Source: Oligoflexia bacterium (lineage in GTDB: Bacteria; Bdellovibrionota; UBA1018). Taken from it: 35,538 bases of DNA. Location: assembly GCA_043732485.1 (NCBI GenBank), contig JAYTHP010000087.1:1-35538 (forward strand), given 5' to 3'. The first letter of the stretch is position 1; each line of letters opens with the position of its first letter. This document shows, piece by piece, positions 324 through 9,030 of the stretch. The notes under the pieces are model-generated. The model was not told the origin of the DNA and made no database searches. It saw only the letters and a program-made list of their open reading frames with translations. A program made the position numbers and the translations under genes.

Positions 324-1400
324 TTACTTCAAGAGCACTTTCACGGCCGCTTTAAGTCCTTGGGGCAGGTGCGGCAGGTGATCGACGCGGGAAAACTGCC
401 CTAAACCCCTCCTCGCAAGCTCAAGGCACAAGCCTTGATCCTTTGATCCCTCGCTGCTGCCTACCAACTGCAAGACACTGAGCGGCGCGCAAGAAGCCGC
501 CAGAAAAATAGGATTTCTGCCAGCCGTGTACTGGCCATCGGTCACGAGGAGGAGTGAGACTTTCAGGCCGCGCTCCTTTTGCCGAGCGGCGCGCAGCATC
601 CGGAGCCCGGCTTTCAAGCCCTGCTCTAAATCGGTGTAACCTTGACTAGCGAGCTCAAGAAACTGCCGCACCACCACCGCAGGGCTAAGCCGCTGGTTGA
701 AGACCTGAATCGTTTTCGCCTGGTGCTGAAAAATTACTAGGCCCACTTTCAGGAAATAAAAATCTTGTAAAATCACCGCCAAAGCCACCGCCGTGAGCGC
801 CAACTTCTCGCCTCGCATCGATAGGCTAGCATCCACGCACAAGATCAAGCCGCGTTCTCGCTCTTCGCTGACTTCCACCCAGAGCTCACCGCCTGAGCCC
901 GACTCAGCCCCCGCTAAGCCCCCTTGCTCCAGCATCTCTTCAAACGCAAGCTCACACTCACCGTCTGCGCCACTGACCCAGGGCTGAGCCTCCACCCGCT
1001 GGGGTGCTACCGCTTGCTGCCGCATCTTGCGGGCCTGACGCAAAATCTGCTGTATTGCCGCCTGTTGCGCTTGCTGGACCTCGATGTGCCCAGCAGCATG
1101 CTTTTCCAGGGCACGCTGGTAGACTTTCACAAAATCTGCAACTAGCTTGTGAGTAGCCTCCTCCTTCAAGCTCCCGGACGCTGGACTTTGAGTGGGACCA
1201 GGCTCAGTCGTTTGCGCCTTGCGATTGCACTCGAGCGAAGAATCACGATCAAAAAAACCCACCAGCCCCCAATCTGAAGCCATGGGACTGCGACTCAGCG
1301 GCTGCTGCGGCTTGCTCAAGAAGGGATCAACGGCGGGGTCGGCAGCAGGACGCGCGAAGCTAAATAAGTCTTGCGCGGCTTTGGTTCCCAGGCCAGTCAC
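324..1400 (-). CDS. von Willebrand factor A (VWA) domain protein, partner of the upstream AAA+ ATPase
   Basis: MIDAS motif DASLS (DxSxS), GYTD and LLVTDG. The GTG at 1400 has no convincing RBS. The same frame is stop-free up to 1520 (TGA at 1523-1521), overlapping the ATPase 3' end. Confidence 0.85.
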   Translation of the reverse strand: MTGLGTKAAQDLFSFARPAADPAVDPFLSKPQQPLSRSPMASDWGLVGFFDRDSSLECNRKAQTTEPGPTQSPASGSLKEEATHKLVADFVKVYQRALEKHAAGHIEVQQAQQAAIQQILRQARKMRQQAVAPQRVEAQPWVSGADGECELAFEEMLEQGGLAGAESGSGGELWVEVSEERERGLILCVDASLSMRGEKLALTAVALAVILQDFYFLKVGLVIFQHQAKTIQVFNQRLSPAVVVRQFLELASQGYTDLEQGLKAGLRMLRAARQKERGLKVSLLLVTDGQYTAGRNPIFLAASCAPLSVLQLVGSSEGSKDQGLCLELARRGLGQFSRVDHLPHLPQGLKAAVKVLLK

Positions 1401-1462
1401 TGCGGGCGCCGTCCCGTCCGGTGCTCGCGCGAGAGGAGCTGACGCATTCTGCTGCCTCTGAC

Positions 1463-2482
1463 TTAGCTGCTGGGACGACTCAACGGACTGCTGCTGCTGC
1501 TGCTGCTCTTTTTTTTTTGCTCAAGCCCGCTCCCGCGACTGAGCCCCAAGACCTCATCCACCCAGGCGTTCACCCAAGCTTCAAACTCCGCCCGCCCAGA
1601 CAGGTACGAGCTCTCCTCCCCCATCTCGATACGATTGGCAAGCACCATCACTGCAGCCTCACGAAACGCCGCTTCAAGCGATAACGCCCCAAGAATCCCA
1701 GCAGCGGGAGTCAGTAACGCTGGATCCTGCGGCTTGACCGCTTCGGGCTTCAAATCCTTGGGCCCCGCAGACTCTTCCATCAAACTCACCGTGATTTCGA
1801 CCAAACTGATGGCAGCCCGCAGCGATGCCCCGCGCCGCACCGAGGGGTGGCGACGCGTCAGCCGCACCAGCGCAACCGCAAGCGCAATCAACCCAGTAGC
1901 GTCAGCCACACTTGCAGTAGGATCACTCACGGCTTGGGTCAGGATGGCAATCTCCTCAGCCTCGCTTTGATAATTCAGGACAATGAGCTCGAAGCGATCC
2001 AAAATCGCTTCACTCAAGAAGGTGGTGGCGGTAAACTCCTTAGGATTTTGCGTGGCAATCACCCAGAACTGGGGGTGAGCCTTTTTTTGCCCGAGCTTAG
2101 GCACCATTAACACCCCTTCATCTAACACCGGTAACAGGAGGTTCTGGACGCCTTCAGGTAAACGATTCAGCTCATTGAGCAATAAAACCCCGCCTTGCTC
2201 CATCGCCTGCAGCAAAGGTCCTGGCACGAAAGCCTCGGGTGTAAAGCCGCTTTTCATCACCTGCGGCGGATCAAACCAGCCGACCAGCTTTTGCTCCGTA
2301 AACCGCGGATCACCGTCGATGCGAAAAAACGGCCGTCCGAAGAGCTCTGCCATCTCAAGTCCCAGGCTCGTCTTCCCCACCCCTACTGGGCCCTCAATCA
2401 GCACGTGATGCCCCGTTTTAAAGCAGCATCGCAGCTGCTGCAGTTCCCGCTCACGCCCGACGATCCGACTCAAGTGTTGCAC
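1463..2482 (-). CDS. MoxR-family AAA+ ATPase
   Basis: Walker A GPVGVGKTS, variant Walker B LLLNE, sensor-1 ATQNP, LSEAILDRF arginine-finger region and GASLR sensor-2. GAGGAG RBS at about 2493-2498. Confidence 0.92.
   Translation of the reverse strand: MQHLSRIVGRERELQQLRCCFKTGHHVLIEGPVGVGKTSLGLEMAELFGRPFFRIDGDPRFTEQKLVGWFDPPQVMKSGFTPEAFVPGPLLQAMEQGGVLLLNELNRLPEGVQNLLLPVLDEGVLMVPKLGQKKAHPQFWVIATQNPKEFTATTFLSEAILDRFELIVLNYQSEAEEIAILTQAVSDPTASVADATGLIALAVALVRLTRRHPSVRRGASLRAAISLVEITVSLMEESAGPKDLKPEAVKPQDPALLTPAAGILGALSLEAAFREAAVMVLANRIEMGEESSYLSGRAEFEAWVNAWVDEVLGLSRGSGLEQKKKSSSSSSSPLSRPSS
1488..1507. repeat. (CAG/CTG) trinucleotide tract read as poly-Ser in frame 0 and poly-Gln in frame -1
   Basis: ctgctgctgctgctgctgct is visible directly in the sequence. 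Confidence 0.85.
1508..1518 (-). other. Candidate -1 programmed frameshift / transcriptional slippage site (A10G; A_AAA_AAG)
   Basis: Minus strand reads CAA AAA AAA AAG in the ATPase frame. The -1 frame continues AAA GAG CAG CAG... with no stop until the VWA stop at 324. Confidence 0.7.
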
Positions 2483-2985
2483 GTCTTACTCACTCCTCTG
2501 CTGTATTTTCTGATGGCTTCATGGTCTTGCAGCTTCGTGTTTTCTCACCTTCGGCTGCAACCCCCTCCCGCTACCTCCCTACCGCAAGCGCCTATGCCCT
2601 CTCACCCTCTTGTTTTTTCGTTGTAACGCGAAACACCAGAAAAAAAAATCCCCCAGGCCGCCTGAAATCCAAGCCCTCACAAAGTACTTTTTTAAAAGAA
2701 ACATTTTCCCTGCGGCGCTTAGCCAATCAAACCGAGAGTCGCGGGGCAGAGGGCGACTTTAGAGTTCTCTTAGAGGAGGGAAATTTCTTGACACGATCAA
2801 GAACGGAGAGAGATTATGCGGTTCTCAATGATTATTTTGTTGCCTCAGCGTCTTAGATTTTCTTACTCACGTTTTTCTCGTCATTGCTGCCTGACTTAAG
2901 ACATTCCAAAACCTTTAGCTAAAGCAAGGAGAGAGCTAAAAAAGAACAGAAGAGAGCGAGTAGCCCCCAATTCGCTTACGCTCAC

Positions 2986-3567
2986 CTACCCCAAGAGCGT
3001 TTTTGCAAGCGCCGGAATTTCTTCAAGCATCGCTTTACGCTCGCCGTCACTGACCTTAACCACATTAAAAAAACTTTTCCAGACCACGTGCTGAACGCCA
3101 CAAAATCGCAGCGTACCTTCGCTCATCGCGCTAGGAATCGACGTGCTGATCTGATTAAGTTCGACCTCAGGAGAGCCCGTGGTCATACAAACGAGCGCCT
3201 TAGGCTGAGTGAGTAAGCCTTCAAGCCCGCGACTTGACGACTGAAAAGCAAAGCCATAGCTGTAGACTCGGTCAAAATAGCCTTTGAGCAGTGCCGGGCG
3301 ATCAAACCACCACAAGGGATAGATGAACGCCAGCCGATTGGCCCAGCGCACCTCTGCTTGCTCGGCTTGGATATCCGCTGGCACCTTGCCTGCTTGAAAC
3401 GTGGCAAAATCCTCGCCGTCTAAGACTGCGTCAAATTTTTGCTGATACAAATCCCGCGTTCGGACTTCGGCCCCTAGTACCTGCAACTCCGCTTCTAGCC
3501 GCAGCCTGATGGCATGGCTAAAACTTTTTGGATCCGGGTGACAATAAACGATAAGCACTTTTGACAT
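2986..3567 (-). CDS. NAD(P)H-dependent oxidoreductase, flavodoxin-like fold (quinone reductase, KefF/MdaB-like)
   Basis: MSKVLIVYCHPDPKSF, RDLY, PLWWFDRPALLKGYFDRV and TTGS motifs. ATG at 3567 has a GGAGAA RBS, so the longer ORF start at 3654 is not favoured. Confidence 0.93.
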   Translation of the reverse strand: MSKVLIVYCHPDPKSFSHAIRLRLEAELQVLGAEVRTRDLYQQKFDAVLDGEDFATFQAGKVPADIQAEQAEVRWANRLAFIYPLWWFDRPALLKGYFDRVYSYGFAFQSSSRGLEGLLTQPKALVCMTTGSPEVELNQISTSIPSAMSEGTLRFCGVQHVVWKSFFNVVKVSDGERKAMLEEIPALAKTLLG

Positions 3568-3978
3568 GAGCACATTCTCCGTAAGTGAAAATTTACGACG
3601 CAAGACTCCGCGCCCTCTTAAAAGTTTAACGCTGCTCGCGCGAAACCACAACAATCAACGCTACTGAAAAGGGATCTCACGCGAAGGCGCAGCAACCTGG
3701 TCACGGCCCAGCCACTGGCCCCCCCTTTTCGCGACTTCAACCCCCCCTATCCATCCCCCCCCCAGAAAGATCGGCTCGCATGGAGGGGACCAATGAGGGG
3801 GACGAAGGGGGAGAACAATTGGCTGGGGATCCGACCCCAGGACCGAGCGTGGACTGCCCAAGGCTTTAAAAAGTGTTCGTTTTTTGACGGCAAGAACCGT
3901 CCAGCCATAGGTAGAAGTCGTTGAGGCGGAGTTTTCATTGTTCTTTTGTAGGCGAGAATGATAAACTCTACCACACCT

Positions 3979-4224
3979 ATGAGTACCGTTTTAGACTTTG
4001 AAAGCACGTTGGAGCGACTGCAGGTGGTGATTAAAAACCTAGAAAATGGCAGTTTAGCACTGGATGTTTCCCTTGCCCAATTTGAAGAAGGGGTAAGGTT
4101 AAGTCAGGCTTGCCATCAGTACTTAAACGCCGCCGAGCAGAAAGTCGATGCGCTGATGAAAGCCGGGGAAACCAGTCCGGCGTCAGCCAGCCAGACCTCG
4201 GAAAACCCTTCGACCGCAGGCTAA
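3979..4224 (+). CDS. xseB: Exodeoxyribonuclease VII small subunit
   Basis: FESTLERLQVVIKNLENGSLALDVSLAQFEEGVRLSQACHQYLNAAEQKV matches the XseB pattern. Alternative start at 3958. Confidence 0.93.
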   Translation: MSTVLDFESTLERLQVVIKNLENGSLALDVSLAQFEEGVRLSQACHQYLNAAEQKVDALMKAGETSPASASQTSENPSTAG

Positions 4225-4242
4225 AACTTGACCCCAGACACA

Positions 4243-4384
4243 CCCCCCCCCCCCACTCTTGAACGCAAACCCTGCTTGGTGAGCCGCTCACCCCGCTGAC
4301 GACCGACGCCAGACCAGCCTGTTGTCTTTTCCCCACTGGCTTATCTCCTCTCCTTTTTACCCCTCCTCTCTCTCTCTCTCTCTC
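4243..4384. repeat. Simple-sequence tracts: C12 (4243-4254) and (CT)9 (4366-4384)
   Basis: Read directly from the xseB-tlyA spacer. Confidence 0.85.
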
Positions 4385-4445
4385 CTCCCCCTCACACCCA
4401 GAGAGAAAAGAGGCCTCGCTTGACTACCACGGAAGGCTTGAGACT

Positions 4446-5201
4446 TTGAAAAAACGCTTAGATCACCTCCTTGTCGAAAAACTGCTTGCTCCCACCCGGG
4501 CAAGAGCCCAAAGCTTAATCATGAATGCCCAAGCCTTGGTCAACGATCAGCCGGTGTTAAAACCTGGGGCCTTGGTGAGCGAAACCGCCGAACTGAGAAT
4601 TCGCGGGAAGGACCACCCTTATGTTTCCCGCGGCGGCTTGAAACTTGAGGCCGCCTTGGAGCAGTTTCAAATTGTCACGCAAGACAAAGTGGGATTAGAT
4701 ATAGGAGCATCAACAGGGGGATTCACCCATTGCCTGTTGCTGCGCGGCGTCAGCAAGGTCATTGCCATTGACGTGGGATCGCAGCAAATGGCCTGGAGTT
4801 TGCGGGCTGACCCCCGGGTGGTGGTGAAAGAAGGCATCAATGCGCGCTATCTGGAGTTTGCGCAGGTGGGGGAAACTGTGGGGATCATCGTCATTGATGT
4901 TGCCTTTATCTCGCTTGAGAAAATTTTAGGACCACTCCTGCCTTTTGCCACTCCCGACACCGATTGGGTGACGTTGATTAAGCCGCAGTTTGAAGTAGGA
5001 GTGAAAAAATTACCCAAAGGAGGCGTGGTGAAGAGTCGCGAAGATCAGACCCAGGTGGTGGAAAAGGTGCGCCGGTTTGGAGAAAGTATCGGCTTGCGCT
5101 GGCTAGGGGTGATGGAATCACCGATTCAAGGCGCCCAAGGTAACCGCGAGTTTCTGGCGCACTGGCGTTTAAGCGGGAGTTTAGAGGAGAGCTTACCATG
5201 A
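4446..5201 (+). CDS. tlyA: TlyA family rRNA methyltransferase (S4 + FtsJ domains)
   Basis: KKRLDHLLV S4 start, YVSRGGLKL, LDIGASTGGFT, LIKPQFEVG and SPIQGAQGNREFL. Confidence 0.96.
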   Translation: MKKRLDHLLVEKLLAPTRARAQSLIMNAQALVNDQPVLKPGALVSETAELRIRGKDHPYVSRGGLKLEAALEQFQIVTQDKVGLDIGASTGGFTHCLLLRGVSKVIAIDVGSQQMAWSLRADPRVVVKEGINARYLEFAQVGETVGIIVIDVAFISLEKILGPLLPFATPDTDWVTLIKPQFEVGVKKLPKGGVVKSREDQTQVVEKVRRFGESIGLRWLGVMESPIQGAQGNREFLAHWRLSGSLEESLP

Positions 5202-6214
5202 AACGACCTATTTTTGCCGCTTGGGGCCAGACGAGCGTGATGCTATTCGTCTTGGGCTTTGGCGCCTGCAGTAGCGCCTCCAAAACTCCGGAAAACTTGA
5301 GCCCAGGCAGTCGCCTAGGGTCTGCGCTAAGCCCGACCGCCAAAAAAGACGGCGGCACGGGCGAGACGACAGGCGGTGGCGAGCCATCGCAAGGCAACCC
5401 CGCTACCGCGGAGCAAGCCTCACCGCTCCCCGAGCTGCTGCCGCTTGCTCCGCTTCCAGGCGAGAAAGTGTTTCAGCATCAACCCGGCGCGGTGGTCTTG
5501 GTCTTAGGGGGCGGCATGGCCAAGGGGCTTGCGGCCATAGGTGTGCTGCGTGCTTTGAAAGAGGCAAAAATCAGGGTGGCTGCGATTATGGGTCGCGAGA
5601 TGGGCGCACTGATTGCAGCCCTTTACGCTAAAAATGAGACGCTCGGACAGTTTGAGTGGGATTTGTTAAAATTCAAGCCTGAGACCTTTCAGCCGACGTG
5701 GCACTATTCGCTGAGCACCTGGAGTCGGACCTGGCGGCATGAGAAATTCGAGCAAGCGATTGAGGCCATTTTTGGAGATGGCGGCGGCGGCTGGCAGCTT
5801 GAGCAAGCGCACTTGCCAGTTATTTTAGAAAAGCTTGAAGAAGACGGCAAAACCTTGACGGCGTTGCGCAGTGGGGAAGTCAAAGAGCTGCTCGAAAAAA
5901 TCATGGCGCCTGCGCCAACCGGTCCAGAGCAAGCGCAACCCCTAACCCGCACTGCGTTACCCCCTTCTTTGCTGCCAAGCCTTGCGCAGTCCTTGCACCT
6001 TGGGCCAGTGCTGGTCATTGAAACTGAGCCTGCAGTCAGTGGTGATCCTGAGCGGGCAGGCGAAGGCTTGTCGTCGCTGGTCAGAATTCGTCCTGACTTG
6101 AAGGGCATCGACGGGTTGGCATTTGAAAAAATGAGTGATATTCTATTTAAGGGCAAGCAAGCGATGAAAAAAGCATTGCCCGCCGTGATCCAATCGATAG
6201 GAGCCTATGAGTGA
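5198..6214 (+). CDS. Patatin-like lipoprotein, apparently lacking the catalytic residues
   Basis: Lipobox FGAC and the LVLGGGMAKGLAAIGVLRAL glycine-rich loop. The nucleophile position reads GREMG instead of GxSxG. Start overlaps the tlyA stop (ATGA). Confidence 0.75.
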   Translation: MKRPIFAAWGQTSVMLFVLGFGACSSASKTPENLSPGSRLGSALSPTAKKDGGTGETTGGGEPSQGNPATAEQASPLPELLPLAPLPGEKVFQHQPGAVVLVLGGGMAKGLAAIGVLRALKEAKIRVAAIMGREMGALIAALYAKNETLGQFEWDLLKFKPETFQPTWHYSLSTWSRTWRHEKFEQAIEAIFGDGGGGWQLEQAHLPVILEKLEEDGKTLTALRSGEVKELLEKIMAPAPTGPEQAQPLTRTALPPSLLPSLAQSLHLGPVLVIETEPAVSGDPERAGEGLSSLVRIRPDLKGIDGLAFEKMSDILFKGKQAMKKALPAVIQSIGAYE

Positions 6215-9030
6215 TCTTTGAACCAGGTCCACCTTTAAAGTCGTCCCAGAGCAACACCCCTCACTCCGGCTCGATCTGGGGCGTAGGAGGTTCCGGACGG
6301 CGGGGGCCTGTGGGGCAATTTTTTTGGTTGCTCAGTCGACTGGGCTTGTTTTTTGGCCTCAGTGCCGTCTTGGGTGTAGGTGCGGTGTTTGCCTTGTATC
6401 ATTATTTCTCGCAAGGCCTGCCGGAGTTGATCAAGCCTGAGGATTACAAGCCGCTAGGGGTCACCCGCATCTTAGCGCAACACGCTGATCAAACGATTGA
6501 AATTGGTGAATTTTACAAGGAAAGGCGCTACCTCATTCCTTTTGAAAAGATCCCAAGCCATCTCATCCAGGCGTTTCTTGCAGCCGAGGATGATCGGTTC
6601 TTTGAGCACTCAGGCATTAATCTCTTCAGTATTATGCGAGCAGGGATTGCTAATTTTAGAGCCGGACACGTGGTGCAAGGTGGCAGTACGATCACCCAGC
6701 AGGTGGCAAAATCACTCCTGCCGACCCATGAGCGCCGGGAGCGCAGCCTGGATCGTAAGCTCAAAGAGGTGATTTTATCGACCAGGCTGGAGCATCACCT
6801 CTCAAAAAATCAGATCCTTTACCTCTACTTAAACCAAATTTATCTCGGCCACGGGGCCTACGGCGTGCAGGCCGCCAGTCGCGCTTACTTTAATAAGGAC
6901 GTCAGCGCCTTGACGATCGCCGAGGCGGCCCTTTTAGCGGGCATGCCCCAAGCCCCGGGCATTTATAGCCCGCTCATGAACTCGAAAAAAGCCAAAGAGC
7001 GTCAACTCTACGTACTAAAACGTATGTTAGAAAACAGCTTCATTACGGCCCAACAAATGGCCGAAGCCGTTCGCCAGCCGCTTACCATCTATCTGGAAGA
7101 AGACTTGAACAAGAAGTATTCTCCGTACTTAGTGGAATTTGTTCGCAAATACCTCGTCGAGAAGTTCGGAGAAAAGGCAGTTTACGAAAATGCGCTCACC
7201 GTGAAGGTGCCCGTGCAACCCTCGCACCTGCTGGCTGCTGCCAAAAGCCTGAGCGATGGCCTGCGCGCGGTGGATAAGCGCCTGGGCTACCGCGGGGTCG
7301 CCCAACACCTCTCCACGCTCGAGGAGATTGAGAAGTTCTTAGTCCAGCAAAAAAACAAATTCATCAGCCAACGCCTGCGCTTTCACTCGCTGATGGCCGA
7401 TGGCCACTTTGATCAAGCAGAATCCTTGCGCGCAGCCGGGTTTTTGCAAGACGCTGATTGCTTGGAAGAAACCGATTACTGGGCAGTGGTGACTGGTTTT
7501 GATGCGGTTAAAAAAACCGCCCACCTCAAACTAGGAACGTTTGCAGCGGAACTGGCGTTAAGCGACATGCTGTGGGCTAAGCCCGCTCGCAGTGAAGACG
7601 ACAAGCAGCCGATCGTCTACATCCCTCCGCCCCGCTCACCTGCGCGGGTGTTTAAGCTCGGGGATGTGATTTTAGTGCGGCCCTTGCACTTAGCTGATTT
7701 TAAAAAAAGAATGACCTTTAAAGCAGAAAGCGGCGGCGGCCTCGGGTTTCCCGGCGCTGCCGCTGAGAACTCGACCCCGACGTTATCCGTCGCGCTTGAA
7801 CAACGGCCGCAGGTACAGGGCGCTTTGATTTCTTTTGACTTAGAAACCGGCAACTTAGTGGCCATGGCCGGTGGTTATGATTTTTCCTCCTCCGAGTTTA
7901 ACCGTGCCATTCAAGCCATGAGGCAGCCCGGATCGGCTTTCAAGCCCTTTATTTACGCCGCAGCCTTGGAAAAAGGCTTCACGCCTGCTTCCATCATCGT
8001 CGATTCTCCGCTGGTCTTTAAAGACTCAGGCGGCGCCGTGTCGTGGCGTCCGAATAACTATGAGTCGAAGTTTTACGGCGACACGGTGTTCAGGCAGGCG
8101 CTGATTAAATCCCGCAACATCCCGACCATTAAGATCGTGCAGGAAATTCAGGTCAATTATTTACTCCATTACATCAAGCGCTTAGGTATTGCAGGCCAGT
8201 TCCCTTCCGATCTTTCCATCGCGCTAGGCAGCGGCTCCATTGCGCTCTTTGATCTGGTCAAAGCTTACGCACTTTTTCCCAGGCTCGGTCGCAAACTCAG
8301 TCCGGTGTTCATTCAGCAGATTCAAAGCCAGGAGGGCCAGACCTTAGAAGAAGTTTCCCCGCAAAAAAGCGCGGCTACGACGCCCTCCCCTGACCCCAAC
8401 CTGCCCCCCTCCCTCCCGGACTTAGCCGACTCGAAGATCCCAGGCGAGGAGGAGCCAACGACGGCCTCCAATGACGCCAAGGTCCGGCGCGCGGAGGGAC
8501 AAAAGGCCGTGTTCCCGAAACTCCCGCAACCTTCTGACCCCGACCAGGTGCTTGATCCCAGGGTCGCCTACGTCATGACCCACCTCATGAAAGAAGTGGT
8601 AGATTTTGGTACCGGGCATGAGGCTAAGACCTTAGGACGCATCTCGGCTGGCAAGACTGGCACCACTAATGACTCGGTCGATGCCCTTTACGTGGGTTTC
8701 ACGAAGGCCGTGATCACCGGGGTCTGGGTCGGCTATGACACCCAAAAAACGCTTGGACCCGGAGAAACTGGCGCAAAAGCTGCCTTACCAATCTGGGTGA
8801 ATTTCATGAAAGAAGTGGTCCCCTCCTACGCCGAAAGTGACTTCAACGTGCCACCCGGCGTGGTATTTGCCTCGATTGACGCCAATACCGGTAAAGCGGT
8901 GAAGCCCGGACCGAGTAACGCTATTCAAGAAGCCTTTATCGAAGGCACCGAGCCTACCAGCTCAAGCAAGACCAGCGATCAAGGGGGCTCACAAGCCACC
9001 TTTGACTTTTACAACGAAGACCGCGAGTAA
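6211..9030 (+). CDS. mrcA: Penicillin-binding protein 1A (class A PBP)
   Basis: N-terminal TM helix. Transglycosylase motifs AAEDDRFFEHSG and QGGSTITQQVAK; transpeptidase motifs SAFK, SRN and KTG. Confidence 0.95.
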   Translation: MIFEPGPPLKSSQSNTPHSGSIWGVGGSGRRGPVGQFFWLLSRLGLFFGLSAVLGVGAVFALYHYFSQGLPELIKPEDYKPLGVTRILAQHADQTIEIGEFYKERRYLIPFEKIPSHLIQAFLAAEDDRFFEHSGINLFSIMRAGIANFRAGHVVQGGSTITQQVAKSLLPTHERRERSLDRKLKEVILSTRLEHHLSKNQILYLYLNQIYLGHGAYGVQAASRAYFNKDVSALTIAEAALLAGMPQAPGIYSPLMNSKKAKERQLYVLKRMLENSFITAQQMAEAVRQPLTIYLEEDLNKKYSPYLVEFVRKYLVEKFGEKAVYENALTVKVPVQPSHLLAAAKSLSDGLRAVDKRLGYRGVAQHLSTLEEIEKFLVQQKNKFISQRLRFHSLMADGHFDQAESLRAAGFLQDADCLEETDYWAVVTGFDAVKKTAHLKLGTFAAELALSDMLWAKPARSEDDKQPIVYIPPPRSPARVFKLGDVILVRPLHLADFKKRMTFKAESGGGLGFPGAAAENSTPTLSVALEQRPQVQGALISFDLETGNLVAMAGGYDFSSSEFNRAIQAMRQPGSAFKPFIYAAALEKGFTPASIIVDSPLVFKDSGGAVSWRPNNYESKFYGDTVFRQALIKSRNIPTIKIVQEIQVNYLLHYIKRLGIAGQFPSDLSIALGSGSIALFDLVKAYALFPRLGRKLSPVFIQQIQSQEGQTLEEVSPQKSAATTPSPDPNLPPSLPDLADSKIPGEEEPTTASNDAKVRRAEGQKAVFPKLPQPSDPDQVLDPRVAYVMTHLMKEVVDFGTGHEAKTLGRISAGKTGTTNDSVDALYVGFTKAVITGVWVGYDTQKTLGPGETGAKAALPIWVNFMKEVVPSYAESDFNVPPGVVFASIDANTGKAVKPGPSNAIQEAFIEGTEPTSSSKTSDQGGSQATFDFYNEDRE

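Follow-up and report, generated by a model that had tools for sequence, protein, structure and literature searches.

The stretch of DNA analysed here (the window) comprises 35,538 nucleotides (nt) of contig JAYTHP010000087.1 from an Oligoflexia bacterium of the Bdellovibrionota (assembly GCA_043732485.1), and carries on its minus strand, between 2482 and 324, an open reading frame (ORF) for a MoxR-type AAA+ ATPase followed by an ORF for a VWA-domain protein. The two ORFs are most likely a single gene whose reading frame breaks at ten consecutive adenines (A10). Comparison of genomes strongly supports this A-run site as a conserved, phylum-wide feature and not an assembly error. The long ATPase-linker-VWA product is very probably made by recoding in the -1 direction, be it by RNA polymerase or by the ribosome.

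The junction and its conservation

The ATPase ORF (1463..2482, minus strand) runs from GTG at 2482 to TAA at 1465-1463 and codes for 339 amino acids (aa; 36.8 kDa). The putative recoding site, an A10 run at 1509..1518 on the same strand, codes for Lys-Lys-Lys in the ATPase tail, where the ATPase frame reads CAA AAA AAA AAG (1519-1508). Just 5' of the run the -1 frame is shut by a TGA (1521..1523, minus strand), so that a shift could only take place within the last 55 nt ahead of the ATPase stop; after this TGA, the -1 frame reads AKKKEQQQQQQSVESSQQ... and is stop-free down to 324. A one-base slip within the run would lead to a predicted fusion of 719 aa and 78.1 kDa. An earlier, sequence-only reading had described the run, its codons, the TGA and the open frame, with predicted products of 339 aa and 719 aa (~78 kDa); all were recomputed and found correct.

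Orthologues were detected in 34 of 41 near relatives and in 93 of 301 genomes of the phylum, and the close homologues bear the database names Oligoflexia and Bdellovibrionota (a search of genome contigs with the window protein alone recovered just 4 loci). Three of the 106 loci examined ran off their contigs (L005, L007 and L206); the remaining 103 comprise 101 two-ORF loci, one fused in frame and one cut before the VWA. Duplicate genomes and G023 (a partial match at a contig end) are not among the 103, and L054 was dropped for a break in the VWA half and an N. The two-ORF set, window included, represents 99 Bdellovibrionota-lineage genomes from 15 families with GC contents of 35-65%. The VWA half is in frame -1 at 100 of these 101 loci. 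The longest A run before the ATPase stop is A9 in 42, A10 in 53, A11 in four, and A8 and A6 in one each; 9-11 adenines are thus present in 99, and every run overlaps a stretch of open -1 frame. The alignment of homologous loci that the sequence-only reading had proposed as a check therefore found both the run and the register conserved. The opposite pattern, homologues without the run whose VWA starts by itself, was also checked: 99 of 101 keep the run, and 21 of 100 have no start codon for the VWA half (see below).

By comparison, A9 was reached neither in 1269 control windows taken from these ATPase genes nor at 99 VWA ends, and a comparable run is absent from the ordinary MoxR paralogues that this genome encodes. 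Lysine codons elsewhere are divided between AAA (753) and AAG (617). Among database homologues, 114 of 119 end in KK[KN] plus 0-15 residues. As related loci are not independent, p-values from this set are overstated, which tells against the reading given here. Two exceptions were seen: L138 (G302), in the -1 register, carries A_AAA_AAG alone (A6G), and L197 (G210) has A8 with the VWA in the +1 frame. Second copies occur in three genomes (L040 in G018, L041 in G032 and L188 in G077), and in G018 one copy is split while the other is fused in frame.

Sequence correctness and chance

Logan contigs from runs X1 and X2 are identical to the window over positions 200-2700, with neither a mismatch nor a gap, at depths of 19.4 and 17.5; this evidence consists of contigs rather than raw reads, and both runs may be the source of the window DNA. 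A record from another sample of the same study (X4; 151 nt, depth 2) keeps 1395-1545 unchanged, A10 included, with just 27 letters on one flank of the run. The possibility of an assembly error (A11) in a simple fused gene, raised in the sequence-only reading, was thus checked: the contigs give A10, and the out-of-frame register shared across genomes argues against an error. Homopolymers are indeed error-prone, L197 combines A8 with a +1 VWA, and the natural fusion P0121 reads EKKKDL in frame, all of which would suit either an error or phase variation at the DNA level. However, 100 independent assemblies share one out-of-frame register, only one of 103 loci is fused, and phase variation would predict a mix of states, so that this explanation is extremely improbable.

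The genome (2.58 Mb) contains 31 A/T runs of at least 10, their number dropping steeply beyond 9 (210 of length 9, 30 of 10 and one of 11), while G/C runs reach 21. On its coding strands, T9 and longer are under-represented, A9 not. Two other genes end in lysine tails of A11 (L229, C29:15799-17199) and A10 (L230, C210:7266-8669). These tails stand 6 nt ahead of the stop codons, and in neither gene does the run lead into a long open frame in another register. One locus by itself therefore proves little; chance is excluded by the conservation of both run and register across loci.

One gene or two

The -1 frame of the two-ORF loci is free of stops over all 2833 codons that separate the run from the first potential start, whereas the third frame has 203 stops there. 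In 21 of 100 loci, neither ATG nor GTG nor TTG occurs ahead of the VWA half's anchor Trp column, and ATG is missing there in 48. Conservation of this anchor is weak in two families; with a stricter motif test, 9 of 64 are without a start. Furthermore, longer homologues number 283 proteins; of the 120 listed, the majority combine AAA and VWA domains in ~600 aa, and several bear the name Thermoplasmata. One of them, P0121, is a natural in-frame fusion, and its AlphaFold model (mean pLDDT 83, pTM 0.51) places the KKK at the boundary between the ATPase lid and a disordered linker.

The main alternative holds that these are two ordinary genes, with the VWA protein made from its own start and the A run being a Lys-rich tail. 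In the window, the -1 frame has a long, diverged linker (1134..1508, minus strand) with possible internal starts at GTG 1400 and ATG 1283, followed by a conserved helical region and the VWA domain (324..1133, minus strand; stop TAA 326-324); the profile of relatives starts matching near 1133 (E 2.5e-70). Both starts precede the conserved part and could therefore give a VWA protein with all of its conserved sequence. The earlier statement that the VWA GTG has no good ribosome-binding site proved overstated, as GTG 1400 has a Shine-Dalgarno (SD)-like energy of -6.5 kcal/mol with a generic anti-SD, against -7.0 for the internal site. In addition, some start codon is present in 79 of 100 loci, and the A11 and A10 lysine tails described above show that such gene ends occur elsewhere in this genome. 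Nevertheless, the 21 loci without a start, the fixed -1 register, the open linker, the preference of AAA over AAG at the run and the natural fusions make two independent genes improbable. The core of the sequence-only reading, a single locus predicted to give two proteins across a -1 junction that is conserved, is on the contrary strongly supported by register, A run, open linker and natural fusions.

Possible mechanism of the proposed slip

Judged from the alignment, the conserved feature is a stretch of 9-11 adenines in any phase and not a dnaX-type signal. The run starts in all three phases (10, 45 and 46 loci), and the floor of nine holds even where A6 plus G would suffice for A_AAA_AAG. 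A length of 9 A/T is that reported for polymerase slippage (PMC5009743, PMC1088944), and at least 9 A/T, irrespective of phase, are found in 99 of 101 loci. Both lysine tRNAs, including tRNA-Lys(CTT), are encoded in this genome, and the presence of two has been linked to polymerase slippage in Thermus dnaX (PMC5009743). The third frame also closes early (median 5 codons; 9-22 in controls), which would be expected were all three frames to be used. Ribosome sliding, which needed A11 (PMC4363877), was considered as well and judged unlikely for the shorter runs here, which are A9 or A10 in 95 of 101 loci.

The sequence-only reading had emphasised A_AAA_AAG with an upstream SD, as in E. coli dnaX and IS3-family elements. 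The A10 run does contain two heptamers, A_AAA_AAA (1517-1511) and A_AAA_AAG (1514-1508, using G1508), and the SD-like GGGAG (1530..1534, minus strand) lies 12 and 15 nt 5' of them as claimed, but relatives do not keep it. Over the 101 loci, the mean upstream SD energy (-2.86 kcal/mol) does not differ from that of coding controls (-2.77; p 0.44), while ATPase starts reach -3.97 by the same measure; the anti-SD used is generic because no 16S rRNA was found in the assembly. Nor is there a conserved downstream hairpin (mean z -0.09, n=101), and the window values are 0.81 and 0.66; the sequence-only reading had likewise noted no strong hairpin close downstream. With the SD not above controls, 38 of 101 loci lacking the heptamer in frame, and tRNA-Lys(CTT) present, the dnaX-type signal does not hold as the conserved mechanism.

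Slippage by RNA polymerase is accordingly the favoured reading of the site, with a confidence that is about even. Several observations weigh against it. An in-frame A_AAA_AAG is present in 63 of 101 loci, and GGAG, GAGG or AGGA at 9-15 nt is mildly enriched (16 of 101, against 8%). The direction is -1 in 100 of 101 loci and the sole +1 case has A8, so that the mixed directions used as a criterion in PMC3711429, where a uniform -1 direction is taken as a sign of ribosomal shifting, are not seen. At 63 of 101 loci, no more than 4 nt separate the ATPase stop from the run; L138 is limited to A6G, and archaeal orthologues bear a ribosomal-type signal (described below). Moreover, A9 is not avoided in the coding sequence of this genome (25 seen, 16 expected), which suggests that slippage at A9 may be weak here; A_AAA_AAG is not avoided either (112, against 80).

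The uniform direction, the in-frame heptamers and the close stop favour a ribosome shifting -1 on A_AAA_AAA or A_AAA_AAG within an extended three-codon run, paused by the stop behind it instead of an SD or hairpin and giving the same two products. Such a shift would also account for L138, which keeps just the heptamer, and is in line with the archaeal A_AAU_UUY sites with hairpins and with chelatase cassettes assayed in E. coli (PMC3711429). The 9-A floor, the free phase, the lack of conserved stimulators, tRNA-Lys(CTT) and the early third-frame stop stand against it, as does the distance of 43 nt between the run and the ATPase stop in the window. Ribosomal shifting is therefore a real but lesser possibility, and both machines may act together. 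The earlier suggestion that transcriptional slippage is equally plausible stands as regards plausibility but not equality, as the polymerase is preferred to the ribosome. In lysine-catabolism operons, the Lys-Lys-Lys site could conceivably let fusion output respond to lysyl-tRNA, though this is very improbable.

Identity of the protein

The window ATPase matches Pfam AAA_5 (E 4e-21; 75.9 bits, cut-off 22), with Walker A GPVGVGKT at 2392-2369 and Walker B LLLNE at 2185-2171 (minus strand); GAGGAG (2493..2498, minus strand) is, from its sequence, the likely ribosome-binding site of its GTG. In a Foldseek search with the fusion P0121, the top matches were NorQ and CbbQ (PDB entries 9qh6 and 6l1q for these systems), the best for the ATPase having E 1.8e-15, TM 0.80 on target and 25% identity. 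The usual Walker B motif is Asp-Glu, with Asp where this family has Asn. Asn-Glu is found in 38 of 38 orthologues and in 119 of the 120 longer homologues listed, split and fused alike, and the catalytic Glu is kept. In the VWA half, which has a Pfam VWA match in the window, the MIDAS motif D.S.SM is present in 99 of 100 loci with conserved T and D columns; the window reads DASLS (833-819), then GYT and TDG.

The protein is, from these profiles and folds, a NorQ/CbbQ-like MoxR-VWA and not a chelatase. As candidates, the chelatase subunits (ChlD, ChlI, cobaltochelatase) were ruled out by scores far under the cut-offs and by the absence of a partner: the window ATPase obtained 34.9 bits with TIGR02031 (cut-off 499.55), 22.1 with TIGR02030 (466.95) and 38.3 with TIGR02442 (779.45), P0121 obtained 62.1 against 779.45, and no large chelatase subunit (CobN/ChlH) was found in this genome (89% complete) or in five of five relatives. 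Matches to GvpN models likewise fell far below the cut-off.

Other features of the window include a (CAG)6 repeat (1488..1505, minus strand), which is read as poly-Gln in frame -1 and as poly-Ser in the tail of the ATPase. Promoter and terminator scans gave chance-level results only. The neighbours at 2986-9030, namely a flavodoxin-fold oxidoreductase, exonuclease VII small subunit, an S4-FtsJ methyltransferase, a patatin-like protein and a 939-aa ORF resembling, as judged by eye, a class A penicillin-binding protein, bear no relation to the usual context of the family.

Putative recoding signals in other orthologues

Orthologues were also found in 18 of 182 archaeal genomes around two named records (Methanomethylicus and Bathyarchaeota). 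These gave 20 loci: nine fused, two that ran off and nine split, all of the latter in the -1 direction. In eight of the nine split loci, A_AAU_UUY stands directly before the stop with a predicted GC-rich hairpin behind it, and the remaining one has A10; in five of the eight, the -1 frame opens just 7 nt before the stop. The hairpins are not outstanding (z -0.5 to -2.1) and the loci are close kin. Archaeal orthologues at L043, L044, L045, L240 and L243-L248 present a canonical-looking -1 ribosomal signal. In a quick tree, used for description only, fused forms are scattered among split ones. Always-fused orthologues are the only strong match in their own genomes, so that ATPase-only subunits are not needed everywhere, a point against the scheme proposed below.

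In an actinobacterial sister family (35% identical), the ATPase ends in PG; an in-frame UGA follows, and the frame behind it stays open, with conserved residues already ahead of the VWA start as annotated, as read on two Rhodococcus plasmids (L257:4790-5000, NZ_AP023173.1; L258:4799-5100, NZ_CP145320.1). An ending in PG is shared by 119 of 120 homologues of this family, none of whose loci came from viral contigs or from 70 distant metagenome loci; the Rhodococcus loci neighbour mycofactocin-coupled SDRs. UGA readthrough may thus be a candidate here, and is a lead only since DNA was read for two loci.

Genomic neighbourhood and possible client

In 70 of the 101 Bdellovibrionota loci, though not in the window, kamE of lysine 5,6-aminomutase lies directly upstream, and these loci also carry kamD and often kdd and kce. 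Methanomethylicus-type loci have corrinoid proteins and an MtaA-type methyltransferase as neighbours, L043 and L044 are surrounded by genes for corrinoid methyltransferases, and MttB adjoins one fused locus. From this context, the client in most relatives is likely the B12-dependent lysine 5,6-aminomutase.

For the window itself, the evidence is contrary: kamD, kamE, kdd and kce were not detected in this genome (89% complete; the kamD search was run alongside a positive-control genome), and no B12-binding domain scored above the cut-off. It might thus be argued that the family is recoded while the window copy, its client lost, is an orphan in decay. Its ATPase end branch is 1.25 in the quick tree against a median of 0.26, its linker carries the CAG repeat and its W-D-V-A motif is lost. 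However, both frames, the Walker motifs, MIDAS and A10 are intact, and five genomes that are 92-98% complete and devoid of kamD still hold the pair and an A9-A10 run, which makes decay decidedly improbable.

Proposed explanation and significance

The following scheme is proposed. One ancestral AAA+-linker-VWA gene would be kept split on purpose. Faithful transcription and translation would give the 339-aa ATPase, while slippage of RNA polymerase on A10 would yield messages with one extra A, coding for the 719-aa ATPase-linker-VWA fusion; messages with other run lengths would stop within a few codons and give a nearly ATPase-only protein. ATPase-only and minority fusion subunits would then build a joint hexamer carrying a tethered VWA adaptor, in the manner of NorQ binding NorD, and this mixed hexamer would remodel the client. 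As the pore of the NorQ hexamer takes a VWA finger of NorD (PMC13036017), a ring of mostly short subunits is plausible, and recoding may thereby set subunit stoichiometry; fused-only genomes imply that a mixed ring is not obligatory.

A broader reading, which is tentative and rather doubtful, would have one AAA+/VWA clade evolve three distinct recoding signals at one and the same point of the protein: a bare A9-A11 in Bdellovibrionota, A_AAU_UUY with a hairpin in Thermoproteota-lineage archaea and a leaky UGA in actinobacteria. The reason would be that a ring of mostly ATPase-only subunits with one tethered VWA adaptor is the working form of an as yet undescribed chaperone, with B12-binding clients in Bdellovibrionota and some archaea.

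Conserved recoding is rare in non-mobile bacterial genes, and MoxR-VWA would add a phylum-spanning family to it. If the interpretation is true, hundreds of annotated 'ATPase'/'VWA' pairs have a wrong start and miss the long product. The fused, poly-A split and hairpin-type split orthologues offer a natural series for asking why ATPase-only and tethered-adaptor subunits are combined, and the same series suits the question of when polymerase or ribosome slippage is used. The family further points to an uncharacterised MoxR chaperone next to B12-dependent enzymes.

Comparison with known systems

No paper on recoding in this MoxR-VWA family was found in a literature search with thin coverage of subscription papers, and the available text and supplement text of PMC9227772 contain no mention of Bdellovibrio, Oligoflex or MoxR. 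Earlier surveys of weak chlD matches (tblastn cut-off 1e-6) could already include family members.

The closest parallel is frameshifted chlD (PMC3711429, PMC9227772), in which an A-rich site, with a shift that is mostly -1, likewise links AAA+ and VWA halves, one locus gives both short and long products, fused homologues exist and there is a tie to B12 biology; some genomes with frameshifted chlD also have no large chelatase subunit (PMC9227772). Unlike the bacterial A-run sites here, chlD signals usually have downstream structure, and chlD is a chelatase subunit whereas the window family is not. In E. coli, chelatase cassettes with A7, A9 and A11 shifted 10, 40 and 63%, in an assay blind to mechanism (PMC3711429).

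The nine-A dnaX of Thermus thermophilus and the two-ORF dnaX genes with A10 (PMC5009743, PMC1088944, PMC3711429) resemble the window family in the bare A9-A10 run, the two lysine tRNAs, the stops close by in the remaining frames and the ribosomal signal of orthologues elsewhere. The protein is unrelated, and a slip is required for the long product here, a situation shared with Shigella mxiE and the two-ORF dnaX genes. In this genome, dnaX forms a single frame of 697 codons, and the stretch of it examined lacks an A9. With E. coli dnaX and IS3-type elements, the window and 63 of 101 loci have A_AAA_AAG in common, but the SD and hairpin of those systems are not conserved in MoxR-VWA loci, and tRNA-Lys(CTT) is present.

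As regards structure, NorQ/NorD and CbbQ/CbbO (PMC13036017) give the best match to the ATPase and pair it with a VWA partner with MIDAS. Those partners are separate genes, whereas the MoxR-VWA halves are joined by recoding or fusion; the family also differs from NorQ/CbbQ in its Walker B Asn-Glu and in its kamDE or corrinoid-protein neighbours. The design itself is thus known from frameshifted chlD and dnaX, and the new part appears to be a recoding site in a non-chelatase MoxR-VWA that extends across a phylum.

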